From the IMG/VR virus record IMGVR_UViG_2531839579_000022: a stretch of DNA of 6,218 bases. The stretch is one strand, 5' to 3'. Made by a program: the position numbers and the translations under genes. This DNA is from a virus. Taxonomy: Duplodnaviria > Heunggongvirae > Uroviricota > Caudoviricetes. Under the pieces are notes generated by a model. That model had not been told where the DNA came from and made no database searches. It saw only the letters and a list, made by a program, of their open reading frames with translations. Position 1 is the stretch's first letter. Each line of letters opens with the position of its first letter. Shown here piece after piece: positions 1,659-6,179 of this stretch.

Positions 1659-2447
1659 TTAAAAATCAGCCTGACTCGGGATCAGTTTTTGTATCGTAGC
1701 TGTAACGTATTTTGCCTGGTGACGGGCGTCATCCAGTGCATTGTGGCGCACGCCTTCGAATGGAATAACGGTTCTGGCATCAAAGTCGATTGTTTTTCCC
1801 AGCTCAACGATTGTGCGTACATCGCGATCGTTGTGGTAGCGCCACGGGCAGGGGATGTCCAGACGTTCGTATGAGGTGCGCAAAATTGCGTTATCGAAAG
1901 TCGCACCATTACCCCATACCTGAACGAATTTTTCATCTGAGTATTCGTTGATGAACTCCCGAAACTGCGAAAGGGCATCCTTCAGTTTTACCTGGTCTGT
2001 TAAAATGGCAGCTCTGGCTTCACTGGACTGCTTCAGCCACCATTCGATGGTTCCACCGTCAGGAACAGCCCCTGTATTCATTGCGTCAGTCAGACTGATA
2101 ACGATATAAAATACTGGCCCGATTTCCCCTGTTTGTGGGTCGAAGAAAACCGCACCAATAACCACGATGGGCGCATTGGTGTTGGTTCCCATTGTTTCAA
2201 GGTCGATCATCAGGTGGTACCACACTCTGCTGGTGGATGTGATAACGTGATGACCGTTCACCGAAATTAAGGAATCTGCCGTCTCGCCAGTTTCACTATC
2301 GCTGGCGTGGTCCTGAGCGCTGCCAGCATTCTCCTTGTGTGGATGTTCAGCGCCTTCCATTTTCTCCGAATCGTCTTCCTGAACTTCAACCTGGTTCTTG
2401 TCATCGAATGTTTCCTGGTATGTTGCGTCGCCCATCACCGCCCACAT
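1659..2447 (-). CDS. DEDDh-family (DnaQ/RNase T-like) 3'-5' exonuclease with an acidic N-terminal extension
   Basis: ORF of 262 aa. Exo I motif in [11 protein letters not shown] (D-x-E after a beta-strand); Exo II-like [12 protein letters not shown]; Exo [16 protein letters not shown] (His plus Asp, DEDDh type). The start is uncertain. ATG 2447 overlaps the upstream ORF by 47 nt and has a poor SD. ATG 2360 (MEGAEHP...) has GGAG 3 nt upstream and no overlap. A start at Met80 (2210) is excluded because it would remove the beta-strand before D-x-E. Confidence 0.8.
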
Positions 2448-3378
2448 CAGGGCAGTTGCCGCCCCGTCTGCCGCAGGCGGTGCAGATCTTTTCCGGTTCC
2501 TGTTGCCACTGGTTCAGGTGTTTCGTTTCTGGCTCGTTTTGTAACGCATTTGGGCTGTTTTGTTCCGCTTTCTGGTAGTTCCGTTCCGATTCATGCTGGT
2601 TCTGGTTTACAGAATCGCGGGTCTGGATCCCCTTAACCCATTTCGGATCATTCGGGTCGCTAATCCCTGCAACAAATTCTCCGCGAGAGGCAGCAAGCAA
2701 CTTATCGGCGTCAGGCTGGCTGATATTGGCTGCCTGCATAATTTTGTTTACTTCGTCAGCGGTAACTTTTACCGGCCCTGGTTGTGCGGTCGTGTCAGAT
2801 GCACCAGTATTTTGTTGTGAACCTGAGTATGTACCGTTTTTGCGGGCGAAATATTCTTCTTTCGTGATTTCAGTAGCCCCGGCAGCCAGTGCCTTATCCA
2901 GACCAGAAAGTTTGTTTGCGCGACCGTATTTTTCGCCATCCTTGTCGGTGAAGAGGAAGTAGAACGGCCCCTCACGCTCTACAGATGGTTCGACTTCCAC
3001 TTTGCATTCGGTTTTTTCGTTGTCCGGAATTGCCGTTTCCACTGCATCAGTTTCTGGTACTGGCGACGAGAGAGTATCAGTTGCGATCTGATTTGTTCCT
3101 TCATCTTCAAACACGCCCTTTGTAGTCAGGTATTCAGTAATGTATTTGTTCAGTACCACAGGGTCTTTGTGAATGTCGATCGGACGCTCACGGACAAGGC
3201 CAAAAATAGTCTGGCGGTCGTAGCGAAGGGCATCAGGCTGTTTGCGATTGATGCGAGATACGCTTCCAGTCTTCGCGGTCGTTGTCGATAACTTCATTTT
3301 TTGCCCAGCGATGGATGCTGCCGTCAATGTTTCCGGCATCCACATCACCAGGCCAGAGAGCGTAGGCCAGTTCATCAT
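2401..3378 (-). CDS. Hypothetical prophage protein with Q/N/E-rich tail; likely the C-terminal segment of a larger frameshift-disrupted gene
   Basis: ORF of 325 aa in the track. The sequence from about residue 45 onward ([40 protein letters not shown]...) looks like genuine protein. The first ~44 residues ([38 protein letters not shown]) are low quality and overlap a better-looking reading frame (track ORF 3233..3493). See the frameshift finding. Function unknown. Confidence 0.5.
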
Positions 3379-4127
3379 CCAGTGTTTTCCATGTCTGCTT
3401 GTATTCGCGACGAATGGCGCAGTGACAGGGGGATTTTTCCTGTTGAGTTTTCAGTGTTCTGCCGGTTGACTCTGGCGTAGGCGAGATCAACAACAGACGT
3501 GTATTTCCCGGTTTCTTTGCGTTCGGCTTCGCGACGTTTTTTCCAGGTGCGTAATTCTGTCTGGATCTCAGGCCATTTTGCGCCCGGCTTACATTTATGT
3601 TTAACCCACCCGATGGCGAACAGCTTTAGTTCTGAATACATGACGTTAACTTCAGGCATTTTCATCAATGCTTCAACGATATGCCCGTCGAATGTTGCCA
3701 TGTCTTCCTGCAACAATTCCTGTGCGCTAATCACCATATCAACGGTGATGTTTTCACATGTACCGAACTTAACCAGGACCGCGTTCTGTACTTCAAGGGA
3801 CAGCTTGTCAAAATTGACGTTCATCGGATCGGATTCTGGTTCGACCGGAATAAAGGAAGCGGATTCCTCATCCCAGCGGTTTTCCTGCATATATTCAGCA
3901 TCCCAGGAATCGAGGGCAGGGCGGGGTATACCGGGTTTATCCTCGCAGACAAGAAATTTATAAGCGCAGTCCTGAGCAGCCGGATAATGTTCCAGGAATT
4001 GCCAGTGAAATTTTGCGCGGGCGCGACGTTCATCACCGGCTTCAATGGCAGTGGCTACAGCGACGGCACCTTCTTCCTTTATTGCCTGTTCGTCCGGAAT
4101 GGCGGCGCAAATAAAGACTTTACTCAT
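3375..4127 (-). CDS. Hypothetical prophage protein; likely the N-terminal segment of the same frameshift-disrupted gene (occupies the ydfE position of the Qin dicB operon)
   Basis: ORF of 250 aa. ATG at 4127 is preceded by GAGGT with an 8-nt spacer. Protein-like composition through about ...YARVNRQNTENSTGKI, then a junk-like tail ([18 protein letters not shown]) that starts at a G5/C5 homopolymer (plus 3428-3432). Directly downstream of the ydfD-like gene in the operon. Confidence 0.6.
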   Translation of the reverse strand: MSKVFICAAIPDEQAIKEEGAVAVATAIEAGDERRARAKFHWQFLEHYPAAQDCAYKFLVCEDKPGIPRPALDSWDAEYMQENRWDEESASFIPVEPESDPMNVNFDKLSLEVQNAVLVKFGTCENITVDMVISAQELLQEDMATFDGHIVEALMKMPEVNVMYSELKLFAIGWVKHKCKPGAKWPEIQTELRTWKKRREAERKETGKYTSVVDLAYARVNRQNTENSTGKIPLSLRHSSRIQADMENTG

Positions 4128-4206: not shown

Positions 4207-4410
4207 TTACGGCGCTGTTTTTAATCCTGCCGGGATTTCGTTATTATCCATGCGAATAACTTTCTCGACCGGATAACAGTTACCAGGAATTTTCTGTTCT
4301 GCTGCGGCAGCCATACATTCTTTCATTGAACCATATATACCAGTAACCACATCAACAGGTTCGCCAGTATTAAGAAAAACAGTCAGAGTGAGGGCAACAG
4401 CAGTATTCAT
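4207..4410 (-). CDS. ydfD: Small membrane protein, YdfD-like (Qin prophage lysis protein family)
   Basis: 67 aa from the ATG at 4410. That ATG overlaps the dicB stop as ATGA (stop 4407-4409, start 4408-4410). SD AAGGA sits 8 nt upstream. The N-terminal hydrophobic segment MNTAVALTLTVFL is consistent with a single transmembrane helix. Size and position directly after dicB match K-12 ydfD (63 aa). The track's longer 85-aa version starting at 4464 has no usable SD. Confidence 0.6.
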   Translation of the reverse strand: MNTAVALTLTVFLNTGEPVDVVTGIYGSMKECMAAAAEQKIPGNCYPVEKVIRMDNNEIPAGLKTAP

Positions 4411-4595
4411 TGCCAGTATCCTTTTTGCATCGGGCGTAAACGTGCCAGCATTGAAAGAATGCATATTTTATTTAATAGCTCCCGTTCGTGTTTTCTCTTG
4501 TTAATGGCATCTTCAGTAAATACAGGGTTACTGATAGTGACACCAATTTCAAAACAACCTTCAGACGTATTAACGTTTGGTAATAACGTTTCCAT
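4407..4595 (-). CDS. dicB: Cell division inhibitor DicB
   Basis: 62 aa from the ATG at 4595, preceded by GAGGA with a 7-nt spacer. The sequence METLLPNVNTSEGCFEIGVTISNPVFTEDAINKRK...LNKICI.SMLARLR matches my recollection of K-12 DicB (62 aa, MinC-dependent division inhibitor). The track ORF 4407..4691 extends upstream to a GTG but has no SD there. Lies about 180 nt downstream of the DicF-like terminator, as in Qin. Confidence 0.82.
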   Translation of the reverse strand: METLLPNVNTSEGCFEIGVTISNPVFTEDAINKRKHERELLNKICILSMLARLRPMQKGYWQ

Positions 4596-4612
4596 TATCG
4601 CGTCCTCAACAA

Positions 4613-4774
4613 TGAATTTTGTGATGCGGTGCCTGGTGCCTCCAGGTGACGTTAACCAGTTAATAATTAACGCCGGATACAGAGAACCCACCCATAAGAA
4701 CCAATACGGAAGTCAACTGGCCTTTTTAACTGTTCCGCGTGCGCTGAGCCGCATTCACCGCATCACAAAATTCA
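4613..4774. repeat. Perfect 19-bp inverted repeat (TGAATTTTGTGATGCGGTG / CACCGCATCACAAAATTCA) enclosing a 124-nt spacer
   Basis: Left arm 4613-4631 and right arm 4756-4774 are exact reverse complements; the bases immediately outside both arms do not pair. Located between the DicF-like terminator and the dicB SD. The spacer holds a CCTGG-N5-CCAGG hairpin and a 13-bp palindrome GTTAATAATTAAC (4659-4671). Confidence 0.85.
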
Positions 4775-4778
4775 CTTT

Positions 4779-4821
4779 AAAAGGGGCGGGTATCATGGGA
4801 AAAACAAAACGGATACCCGCC
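4779..4821 (-). terminator. Putative Rho-independent terminator (3' end of DicF-like RNA)
   Basis: 10-bp perfect GC-rich stem (plus 4785-4794 GGCGGGTATC paired with 4812-4821 GATACCCGCC) with a 17-nt loop. On the minus strand it is followed by CC-UUUU (plus 4779-4782). The U-tract is short and the loop long, so termination is probably partial. On the plus strand it is followed by A-rich sequence, so it is not a plus-strand terminator. Confidence 0.45.
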
Positions 4822-4835
4822 AAAAGGTAATCAAC
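4779..4835 (-). ncRNA. dicF: DicF-like small RNA (ftsZ-repressing sRNA family), diverged variant
   Basis: Minus-strand sequence ...UUGAUUACCUUUUGGCGGGUAUC-CGUUUUGUUUUUCCCAU-GAUACCCGCCCCUUUU. The 5' part (UUUGGCGG.UAUC.GUUUU) resembles my recollection of K-12 DicF (..CGUUUGGCGGUAUCAGUUUUAC..). Position is between the ydfC-like gene and dicB, as in the Qin dicB operon. Ends in a GC stem plus U-tract. The 5' end is not determinable from sequence, since in K-12 it is made by RNase E processing. Confidence 0.55.
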
Positions 4836-5161
4836 ATGGGTTGTTGCAGCGGGATTGTCACTCAGGCGTATGGTCAACCTGACAACCCGGTGGACATTTG
4901 CGAGGAACGGAGAACCCCCGCCATACTTACCGCCGCGCCATTTCGCGGAGTGCCACAACCGGAAGCGCACGGTCGACGAAAATTTAACGACAGGCTATCT
5001 ATGAACCAGCAACCTCGCCGTGCGCTTTCGCGTTATGCTCTGACTTTTCAGAGAAATATCCTTTCAGTAAACTGTCAGTGCCGGATGCTCACCCGTGTCC
5101 GGCGCACACACTCCACCTCACCCGTGGAGAACTCCTTAATTACCAACCCTCAGGAGGGTGA

Positions 5162-5395
5162 ATGTTAAAATCAACGCTTATTGCTAAATGCCTTTATCAA
5201 AATCGCATGGTAAGCAGCATTTCAATAGGCGAGTCTGCAGTTAAAAGTATTTTCGAAGAGTACTTTCCCGGGCATGATTTTAATAAATGGAATACCAAAT
5301 TACCGCCAGCAGTTTCAACGCGTATTCTGAAAGCAACTGAAAGAGCAAGTACAATTCGCGTTAACTATTTCATTAAAGATTTGTGGGATCTTTGA
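5162..5395 (+). CDS. Hypothetical small protein (77 aa); the only plus-strand gene candidate, convergent with the 135-aa ORF
   Basis: ATG at 5162 is preceded by a strong SD AGGAGG (5152-5157) with a 4-nt spacer. AT-rich coding region, in contrast to the GC-rich segment directly upstream. Not hydrophobic; no recognisable motif. Its 3' end overlaps the 3' end of the minus-strand 135-aa ORF by 23 nt (5373-5395). Real coding status is uncertain. Confidence 0.45.
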   Translation: MLKSTLIAKCLYQNRMVSSISIGESAVKSIFEEYFPGHDFNKWNTKLPPAVSTRILKATERASTIRVNYFIKDLWDL

Positions 5396-5780
5396 TATCC
5401 ACAGAGCCTAAAGTATGTGCATATGGATGTGCTATTGTGCGCCCTCGCAGATTTGCATCATTTTCTAAATTCACTGAACGAAACAGGGCATCAACAAGGC
5501 TCTGTACAATGCAAAGGCAATCGAAGACTGTCGCCGTTTCTGTTTTGATTGATGAAAGAACATGGCCATTCACGCAAACAGAAATTACCCGTTTATTAAC
5601 ATCGCTTTCCTGCTTTTGATTATCAGAACCATATAGCCCTGAAAAAGCATTGCGCACATTACGAACCATATTATCGATGGTTTCTTTTTTGGTGTATGCC
5701 GGGTCAATTTTCACCAGACTATCACCGAGTGTCGTTGCAGCAATTATCTGGATTTCTTTTGGTAAATCTTTAAATTCCAT
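5373..5780 (-). CDS. Hypothetical protein (135 aa), no counterpart recalled in the K-12 dicB operon
   Basis: ATG at 5780 is preceded by GAGG with a 6-nt spacer and lies 22 nt downstream of the stop of the 72-aa ORF, so it is operonic. Soluble-looking sequence with no transmembrane segment and no recognisable catalytic motif. Moderately AT-rich. Confidence 0.6.
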   Translation of the reverse strand: MEFKDLPKEIQIIAATTLGDSLVKIDPAYTKKETIDNMVRNVRNAFSGLYGSDNQKQESDVNKRVISVCVNGHVLSSIKTETATVFDCLCIVQSLVDALFRSVNLENDANLRGRTIAHPYAHTLGSVDIKDPTNL

Positions 5781-5802
5781 TATTAGCCTCGTTGGTTAAC
5801 CA

Positions 5803-6021
5803 TTAACGTGGGTATGTAATCATTCTGGCAATGCTTAATGCCGCTGCTTTTTCCAGATTGGTGATATCCTGCTCCAGAGCGGACAGATTTTCAGCCTGCT
5901 TAGCCCTGGCTTCATTGGCCCATTTCAGGTCCTGCGCAGCCTTAATTTTCTGGTGCATCCACTCATAAAGTTCATCATCGGTATAGTCTGGCGCGATGAT
6001 GACGGGTTCTCGTTTCTGCAT
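5803..6021 (-). CDS. Small hypothetical protein (72 aa), YdfC-like by size and position
   Basis: ATG at 6021 is preceded by GAGGAA with a 5-nt spacer. Predicted helical, coiled-coil-like sequence (KIKAAQDLKWANEARAKQAENLSALEQDITNLEKAAALSIARM). Same size as K-12 YdfC (72 aa) and in the same operon position; the sequence itself is not recalled, so no symbol is assigned. Confidence 0.55.
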   Translation of the reverse strand: MQKREPVIIAPDYTDDELYEWMHQKIKAAQDLKWANEARAKQAENLSALEQDITNLEKAAALSIARMITYPR

Positions 6022-6050: not shown

Positions 6051-6179
6051 TCAGCCGTTAGATTTTGCCGGGCTGGAAAGCGCCTGTATAAACTCACTGA
6101 AGCTGAGAGTTTCTTCGCCTTTGGCAAGGCCTTCGAAGTATTCTTCGTAAGCCTTTTCCATGATTGTGTCGAAATCCAT
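6051..6179 (-). CDS. Small hypothetical protein (42 aa), YdfB-like by size and position
   Basis: Not in the ORF track because it is short. Minus-strand ATG at 6179 is preceded by AGGTGAG with a 5-6-nt spacer; the protein is MDFDTIMEKAYEEYFEGLAKGEETLSFSEFIQALSSPAKSNG, ending at TGA 6051-6053. The frame stays open upstream to the window edge (VPVAGWKETQVSD), so a longer gene running out of the window cannot be excluded. Size equals K-12 YdfB (42 aa). Confidence 0.4.
   Translation of the reverse strand: MDFDTIMEKAYEEYFEGLAKGEETLSFSEFIQALSSPAKSNG

Follow-up and report, generated by a model that had tools for sequence, protein, structure and literature searches.

A Polymorphic Two-Gene Cassette in the dicB Operon of a Qin-like Prophage and Its Possible Role in Exclusion and Escape

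Main Finding

The window analyzed here, the whole 6,218-nt stretch of the virus record IMGVR_UViG_2531839579_000022, is the left arm of a Qin-like lambdoid prophage and reads on the minus strand. Beside ydfC in its dicB operon, we noted an accessory insert of 634 bp (nt. 5151–5784) encoding two small convergent genes; a 77-amino-acid (aa) protein on the plus strand, here termed Q77, and a 135-aa protein on the minus strand, the C-terminal part of which is a mobile domain, here termed P. The Q77-P pair is a conserved unit, and the insert is one allele of a polymorphic hotspot at which the minus-strand C-terminus and the plus-strand gene are swapped together via shared leaders. Such a conserved, swappable pair suggests, though does not prove, a lysogen-versus-lytic antagonist pair, and from comparison of the sequences we put at roughly one in three the chance that Q77 is an exclusion factor expressed in the lysogen and the P domain its early-expressed antidote.

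Boundaries and Distribution of the Insert

Alignment to the Qin prophage of Escherichia coli K-12 (strain ER2683 as the reference), together with the comparison of occupied and empty junctions, gave an indel with clean edges. The cassette is missing from K-12 Qin and from OkiPb01690 (locus L005), in which the empty junction reads AACCTT followed directly by AGCTTTGTTG. In their longer context, the empty sites run from TTAATTAC(T/C)AACCTT straight into AGCTT(T/C)GTTG, and the occupied sites run from TTAATTACCAACCCT into CAGGAGGGTGAA-ATG at one edge and from CATTATT into AGCCTCGTTGG at the other. The insert thus delimited contains the plus-strand gene with its Shine-Dalgarno (SD) sequence and the entire minus-strand gene. 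It was found in 646 of 5426 complete E. coli genomes (~12%), as well as in the sequenced phage Evi (99.1%), in O157 PPompW prophages, and in one plasmid record.

The original prediction, made from the letters of the window alone, had described an accessory segment of about 1 kb (nt. 4836–5802) that was foreign to K-12. The K-12 alignment shortens this to 634 bp; the claim stands for nt. 5151–5784 and fails for nt. 4836–5150, a GC-rich block of 315 nt, one third of the segment, that shares 89.5% identity with K-12 Qin. Given that the alignment and the junctions place the indel at nt. 5151–5784, this block is not part of the insert. Presence of the segment in K-12 had been named in advance as what would speak against an accessory origin, and this is what was found for the block, which is core operon sequence.

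The two insert open reading frames (ORFs) have a GC content of 0.375–0.42, compared to 0.54–0.55 in the block to the left and 0.48–0.50 in ydfC, in line with the predicted AT-richness of both ORFs relative to the flanks. Two of the marks by which morons are recognized (Hendrix/Juhala), namely insertion between genes that are adjacent in relatives and a base composition unlike that of the flanks, were thus seen here. For a third mark, expression from the prophage with a promoter and terminator of its own, the other leader type has a conserved, extended −10-like TGnTATCTT, and the window-type leader showed neither a convincing promoter nor a terminator. With the site empty in K-12 Qin and OkiPb01690 and occupied in ~12% of genomes, the view of moron-like cargo lodged at one set place in a conserved prophage operon was borne out. 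The locus goes beyond a lone moron, as the accessory cassette is one of many alleles at the same site.

A Hotspot of Matched Gene Pairs

At least seven other matched pairs occupy the site, each combining a variable minus-strand C-terminus with a small plus-strand gene. By length (minus/plus, aa), they include 109/91, 133/92, 201/63–66, 212/73, and 121/66 (E. coli B, n = 28), as well as a 124-aa protein paired with a plus-strand ORF. The minus-strand ORFs at this site in other E. coli prophages have the N-terminal domain in common and diverge from about codon 52–55, and the variable segment begins exactly at the ATG of the plus-strand gene. Each alternative minus-strand ORF converges on its own small plus-strand gene, the two overlapping or abutting in every type.

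Conserved Pairing of Q77 and P

The convergence of the two ORFs, already read from the window in the original prediction, extends to an overlap of their 3′ ends by 23 nt (nt. 5373–5395). An inverted repeat lies in the overlap, AAAGAT (nt. 5375–5380) and ATCTTT (nt. 5388–5393) with a 7-nt spacer, and both proteins therefore end in K-D-x-x-x-L-stop. In other genera, the two arms of the repeat match less well.

We collected 156 Q77 loci from IMG/VR and from the genomes and assemblies fetched (some contigs being counted twice), and a convergent P partner was present at 149 of them across genera, with an overlap of 23 nt, or 26 nt in three loci. Of the seven exceptions, some are Q77 copies that are truncated or carry a frameshift, one lies at a contig end, and one is a homologue of 43% identity from Psychrosphaera, in surroundings that are not those of a phage. 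Among these loci, no phage-borne Q77 that was intact was seen to lack P. Wherever Q77 was found in Serratia, Dickeya, and Yersinia prophages, it converges on a P gene with the same 23-nt overlap. P is there the first gene, 200–320 nt downstream of a CI-type repressor, with Q77 oppositely directed, and in E. coli it comes after ydfABC; these positions place P among the immediate-early genes of the early-left operon.

P does occur without Q77. In the 201-aa form, a further C-terminal domain follows P and overlaps a different plus-strand gene of 63–66 aa, again by 23 nt, and P also lacks Q77 in the homologue P0191. An intact P beside a disrupted Q77 was seen at three loci (L018, L024, and L049).

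This pairing may also be explained by two sets of independent accessory genes, in which modular early minus-strand proteins (carrying host takeover or anti-defence domains after a common N-domain) lie next to separate, lysogen-expressed plus-strand morons, and co-variation arises only from the 3′ overlap and from shared, recombination-prone conserved flanks. The overlap would make recombinational separation rare, the modules are clearly shuffled (P being found with the N-terminal domain, a YdfC-like module, a zinc finger, or a so-called KLKH module), the 201-aa type has P but not Q77, and neither complementary charges nor any other hint of binding emerged for the two proteins. We nonetheless regard this explanation as doubtful, since the pairing has been kept, down to the exact 23-nt overlap, between genera whose synonymous sites are saturated, and the same convergent layout recurs in every cassette type. 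Moreover, recombination exactly at the overlap did occur, at the SVD–AKNN junction of the 201-aa type, and the linkage is therefore not purely mechanical.

The 77-aa Protein and Its Leader

Q77 (nt. 5162–5395, plus strand; MLKSTLIAKCL...KWNT...FIKDLWDL) has the strong AGGAGG SD sequence that had been noted for it (nt. 5152–5157), which can pair inside a small hairpin seen in the fold (ACCCU-CAGG-AGGGU, nt. 5146–5159). Homologues of exactly 77 aa with 55–72% identity are found in Klebsiella, Serratia, Dickeya, Yersinia, Xenorhabdus, Morganella, Proteus, and Photorhabdus, and a scan of species-representative genomes returned just four loci. Between genera, nonsynonymous differences (pN 0.13–0.30) are far below the saturated synonymous ones (pS 0.55–0.87); Q77, like the 135-aa ORF, is a real gene. 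AlphaFold predicts a compact five-helix bundle (pLDDT 96.8), and the full-length profile matches phrog_10348 (E 1.1e-47), a family whose function is not known. One public source labels the exact 77-aa protein as a dGTP triphosphohydrolase; neither sequence nor fold supports this label, which is probably an annotation error.

The selection on Q77 bears on a further explanation, that the locus acts through RNA in the manner of an excludon or of lambda oop. Plus-strand transcription would then collide with, and be antisense to, leaky leftward transcripts, insulating dicF, dicB, and ydfD in the lysogen, with the proteins being secondary. The convergent overlapping layout of all cassette types, the inverted repeat in the overlap (nt. 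5375–5393), and the toxic genes downstream (PMC5069750) fit such regulation. The strong purifying selection on the Q77 protein and its confidently predicted fold do not, and K-12 and OkiPb01690 keep the operon without the cassette, making a primarily RNA-level role quite improbable.

The proximal leader of the window-type plus-strand genes (nt. 5080–5150, plus strand) is identical ahead of four different genes, of 77, 91, 92, and 63/66 aa, all of which are preceded by the CAGGAGGGTGAA-ATG string. It contains two hairpins, GCCGGA...TCCGGC (nt. 5080–5103) and CTCCAC...GTGGAG (nt. 5111–5129), and is partly homologous to the Q77 leader of other genera (CTCCACCTCA, GGAG..CTC, and ACCAA); judged by eye, only the last ~60 nt of the leader resemble those of other genera. 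A second leader type, TTGTGTGCCTG...CCAC.TCAGGC..GGTGGTATCTTGG.AGTTCTCACACAACCAAGAAGG, precedes both the Q77 of other genera and an unrelated 66-aa plus-strand gene in E. coli B, and its conservation is 0.62 versus 0.51 at third codon positions. This type contains TGnTATCTT, 31 nt upstream of the ATG, which looks like an extended −10 element and is absent from the window-type leader.

The 135-aa Protein and the P Domain

The 135-aa ORF (nt. 5373–5780, minus strand) continues the leftward operon from its own SD sequence, as had been proposed. This GAGG (complement, nt. 5787–5790) lies 22 nt past the ydfC stop codon, in the flank that is common to empty sites. The ORF had been taken for a single unknown protein, and while it indeed belongs to no family of known function (full-length profile match to phrog_1363, E 3.7e-47), it is a fusion of a shared N-terminal domain and a mobile domain of ~75 aa, joined by a linker predicted to be disordered. 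In the AlphaFold2 model (pLDDT 71.7), helices at residues 8–23 and 32–50 are followed by a low-confidence linker (residues 49–62), a β-hairpin (residues 65–79), and helices at residues 85–111.

The N-domain (residues 1–52, MEFKDLP...NVRNAFSGLY; nt. 5625–5780) forms a helical hairpin and is a shared N-terminal module, which with its various C-termini makes up proteins of 109, 121, 124, 129, 133, 135, 179, 201, and 208–212 aa; at least 20 different C-termini were counted among 50%-identity representatives. Residues 1–66 alone match phrog_9419, phrog_2151, phrog_6937, and phrog_33007. Only 113 clusters were returned for the N-domain and P by an exhaustive HMMER search of 1.84 billion representatives.

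The P domain (residues ~62–135; nt. 5376–5597), with the motifs VNG, AVAADY-like, and LE.EAN.SG+T, is found as a stand-alone protein of 75–80 aa in Serratia, Dickeya, Yersinia, Proteus, and Klebsiella prophages, and its homologues have E-values of 1e-20 to 1e-35 in at least 10 genera. It is further fused to a YdfC-like N-terminus in Yersinia frederiksenii (L012), to a ClpX-type zinc finger (PF06689; P0108 and P0148), and to a module of another cassette (P0191). We rejected a P-loop reading of the "SGKT" in P, given that the window has GRT and the residues upstream do not fit a Walker A motif. In CP034803 (L181), an IS3-family element (nt. 1724–2937) lies within the P-domain part of the 135-aa gene, and the adjacent 77-aa gene is intact.

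This architecture raises the possibility of the reverse polarity, as in pore-forming colicins, where the variable minus-strand C-terminus would be a toxic or host-directed effector made upon induction or infection, and the plus-strand gene a constitutive immunity gene shielding lysogens when the effector leaks or when a phage of the same type superinfects. As in colicin operons, an SOS-inducible gene would precede a small gene that has its own promoter on the other strand, with lethal functions downstream, which here are dicF, dicB, and ydfD, and a conserved N-terminus with a polymorphic C-terminus and a small cognate gene alongside is the pattern of polymorphic toxins. Nevertheless, P matches no toxin family and has no secretion or membrane features, and the internal P modules without Q77 (in the 201-aa type and P0191) would be unprotected effectors. 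We therefore find the reverse polarity unlikely.

Searches for Known Functions

As expected from the original prediction, neither ORF has a recognizable motif, with no match to either protein in Pfam, NCBIfam, or PADLOC (no family in PADLOC-DB v2 at E ≤ 1), and no Pfam match for any member of the two protein alignments. Searches by sequence and fold against the PDB and against BFVD gave no match that indicates a function, and PHROGs returned only families of unknown function, likewise for seven other cassette proteins. We found no literature on these genes when searching by accession, by PPompW, by hotspot, or by self-immunity. Neither conserved catalytic-looking residues nor a known fold was found in Q77 or P, and both thus fit binding proteins.

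Proposed Function

We propose that the insert is an allele of a two-gene cassette in the immediate-early leftward operon (pL-like and probably repressed by DicA) of Qin-like lambdoid prophages. Q77 would be made in the lysogen, its own leader driving transcription that runs counter to the repressed operon; there, this small soluble protein may bind and block some step of lambdoid lytic growth, resulting in exclusion of, or abortive interference against, incoming relatives. The minus-strand protein would be made when the operon is derepressed or when a phage of this type infects, and its P domain would bind and neutralize Q77, allowing the phage to escape or giving it self-immunity; Q77 may also be turned off by transcription from both sides converging over the 23-nt overlap. 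Exchange of matched pairs between the shared flanks would then create specificity groups.

We favor this polarity, to which the rough one-in-three estimate applies, because the plus-strand genes have separate conserved leaders, the minus-strand genes are immediate-early, and there are many matched alleles. It is further favored by the minus-strand modules being stacked or orphaned (in the 201-aa type and P0191), while no phage was seen with an intact Q77 but no P. An antidote can be tolerated as an orphan; an effector cannot.

Several points weigh against this proposal. In complete genomes, an intact Q77 does stand beside a P gene disrupted by a frameshift or an insertion sequence (CP027472 and CP034803), indicating that Q77 is harmless to the host and that those prophages tolerate the loss of the proposed antidote. 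The 3′-end overlap alone could keep the two genes linked. A role in defence or exclusion gains no support from the PADLOC, Pfam, NCBIfam, PDB, and BFVD searches. In the window-type leader, the promoter scan was empty and there is no convincing −10 element, the best candidate being a weak TTTTCA-17-TAAACT (nt. 5045–5073, plus strand) read by eye, with 8 of 12 matches and below the scan threshold, and the terminator scan returned none for Q77.

The disrupted copies bear equally on a classic type II toxin-antitoxin (addiction) module, for which the small size of the two genes (about 75 aa each), their tight linkage, and their mobility would speak. This candidate was rejected and has very little to recommend it; the genes converge rather than forming a co-directional bicistronic operon, one partner lies in a repressed operon, so that the pair would not be co-expressed in the lysogen, and no toxin-antitoxin family was matched in Pfam, NCBIfam, or PADLOC. 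In addition, sequenced genomes contain intact copies of either gene next to a broken partner, namely Q77 in CP027472 and CP034803 and P in L018, L024, and L049.

Should the exclusion and escape reading be correct, Qin-like and related lambdoid prophages may carry an undescribed class of polymorphic specificity modules, which we put forward tentatively. Each would consist of a small lysogen-expressed protein and a cognate neutralizing domain appended to an immediate-early protein, encoded by convergent overlapping genes that are exchanged as cassettes between shared leaders. Such modules would form a phage-phage exclusion and escape system, organized like colicin-immunity loci, that defines incompatibility groups among prophages.

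The GC-Rich Block and the DicF Position

The GC-rich block that adjoins the insert (nt. 4836–5150, minus strand) is an untranslated region of the core dicB operon, covered to at least 80% in 3510 of the 5426 complete E. coli genomes (about 65%), and matches the "long untranslated region containing dicF" of K-12 (PMC5069750). The structure attributed to it was confirmed, with folding more stable than that of shuffled sequence on both strands (z −2.8 and −3.4). Among 14 variants (80–100% identical), we noted invariant stems, two hypervariable loops (columns 135–180 and 232–262 of alignment A7), and single-stranded stretches that are also invariant; read on the minus strand, the variants show a few compensatory changes and several G-U pairs. 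The clearest element is a long conserved hairpin with a hypervariable loop (GCGCACGGTCGA ... TCGCCGTGCGC; nt. 4965–5025, minus strand), for which RNAalifold pairs (columns 114–198) include compensatory changes at 129:184 and 132:181. The consensus folding energies of the two strands, −78.1 versus −77.1 kcal/mol, barely differ and thus favor neither strand for the structure. No Rfam family matched the block or the insert, and by blastn the block showed no homology to the intergenic regions of Serratia, Dickeya, or Yersinia. Candidate roles of the block are dicF precursor processing and service as a leader or insulator for the plus-strand genes.

A 110-aa plus-strand ORF across the block (nt. 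4836–5168) was rejected as a gene, as its frame is not kept in K-12 and the loop indels are not multiples of three. In OkiPb01690 (nt. 2035–2490, plus strand), a 151-aa ORF with two CxxC pairs (phrog_1244) takes the place of most of the block, in combination with the empty site beside ydfC.

Adjacent to the block, at the DicF position (nt. 4776–4835, minus strand), alignment to K-12 DicF revealed a remnant with a 10-bp terminator hairpin (nt. 4785–4794 and 4812–4821) followed by CCUUUU, a terminator-like site in our scan, and without the 5′ seed UUUCUGGUGACG. The Rfam DicF model (RF00039, gathering score of 48 bits) had no match in the window at E ≤ 1, compared to 76.7 bits in K-12 (the positive control), 72.5 bits in E. 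coli B, and 43.5 bits in one O157 copy. The DicF-like RNA that had been described in this flank is thus a positional remnant only, and a functional DicF is probably not made by this prophage.

Operon Setting

On the minus strand of the window lie an integrase (nt. 23–1318), an excisionase (nt. 1338–1589), a ydfE-type exonuclease (nt. 1659–4127), a ydfD-like DUF1482 gene (nt. 4207–4410), dicB (nt. 4407–4595), ydfC (72 aa; nt. 5803–6021; phrog_1744, and named ydfC in relatives), which forms the upstream flank of the insert, and a ydfB-like ORF (nt. 6051–6179). The order of ydfC, the 135-aa gene, Q77 (on the plus strand), the DicF position, dicB, and the ydfD-like gene agrees, in its flanks, with the Qin dicB-operon order that had been recognized from the sequence.

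The exonuclease is broken by two frame changes into three ORFs (nt. 1659–2447, 2401–3378, and 3375–4127) and is annotated in relatives as one 2472-nt gene. The window shares only 94–96% identity with the best complete genomes, with many small gaps, and the split is therefore either a pseudogene or the result of sequence errors.

Between the DicF position and dicB, a sub-threshold match to STnc100 was noted (nt. 4618–4772, minus strand; 33.5 bits against a gathering score of 47). Similar scores were obtained in every dicB operon examined, and the stretch is thus probably a diverged STnc100 relative forming the dicB 5′ untranslated region. At the same place in CFSAN029787 (L003; nt. 627–1475 and 1239–1424), we observed a Rha-family gene, a C4 antisense RNA (71 bits), and isrK (64 bits), which looks like a second variable site of the dicB operon. 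In the early-left operon of Y. frederiksenii (L012), a structured intergenic region contains a 128-nt match to the tRNA model (nt. 4497–4624, minus strand; 38.5 bits), at full model length and with a large insertion.

Significance and Comparison with Known Systems

Early operons of the dicB type are present in most E. coli genomes, judging from the 3510 of 5426 with the structured block. They have been studied for DicF and DicB; the variable pair beside ydfC is undescribed, and its proteins are all annotated as hypothetical. If the pairs are cognate antagonists, they would form a new class of very compact modules for phage-phage competition or for self-immunity and would explain a recombination hotspot in pathogen prophages (O157 PPompW and Stx-phage carriers), while two genes of ~75 aa with many natural alleles would offer a simple experimental handle for specificity swaps. 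The exclusion and escape reading, if true, would imply incompatibility groups among prophages in most E. coli genomes. Should the genes instead be unrelated morons, there would be nothing unusual in the finding.

One close comparison is the K-12 Qin dicB operon (ydfABC-dicF-dicB-ydfD), which has the flanks, the gene order, and the 315-nt structured block in common with the window at about 90% identity, and differs in that K-12 lacks the 634-bp cassette and the window lacks a canonical DicF. The locus also resembles the morons and hotspots of temperate phages (HK97-type; P2/P4, PMC9122126), in which genes that neighbor each other in relatives are separated, always at one point, by variable cargo with a base composition unlike the flanks and with many alternative alleles. 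Unlike in those hotspots, the cargo here is always a convergent pair overlapping at its 3′ ends, one member being an in-frame C-terminal extension of a conserved operon gene, with no known defence gene and no terminator of its own found by the scan.

Pore-forming colicin operons likewise combine an inducible gene with a variable C-terminus, a small gene on the other strand that has an upstream element of its own, and lethal or lysis functions, and the gene order of colicin-immunity loci is the one seen in the window. No homology to colicin domains or immunity proteins was found by PDB sequence or fold, and the setting differs, as Q77 is predicted to be soluble rather than a membrane immunity protein and lies in a phage early operon instead of on a plasmid. 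The polarity of toxin and antidote given here is our proposal.

The SieB-Esc system of P22 and lambda and the BstA-aba system (PMC8585504) show no homology to Q77 or the 135-aa protein in Pfam and PADLOC searches. They also differ in the nature of the antidote, which is an internal sieB product in one case (Esc) and a DNA element in the other (aba), while the one proposed here would be a separate protein domain encoded on the other strand. The proposed logic is, however, alike, with an abortive factor expressed by the lysogen and a sparing element borne by the phage, and those systems and the present locus all lie next to the immunity region.

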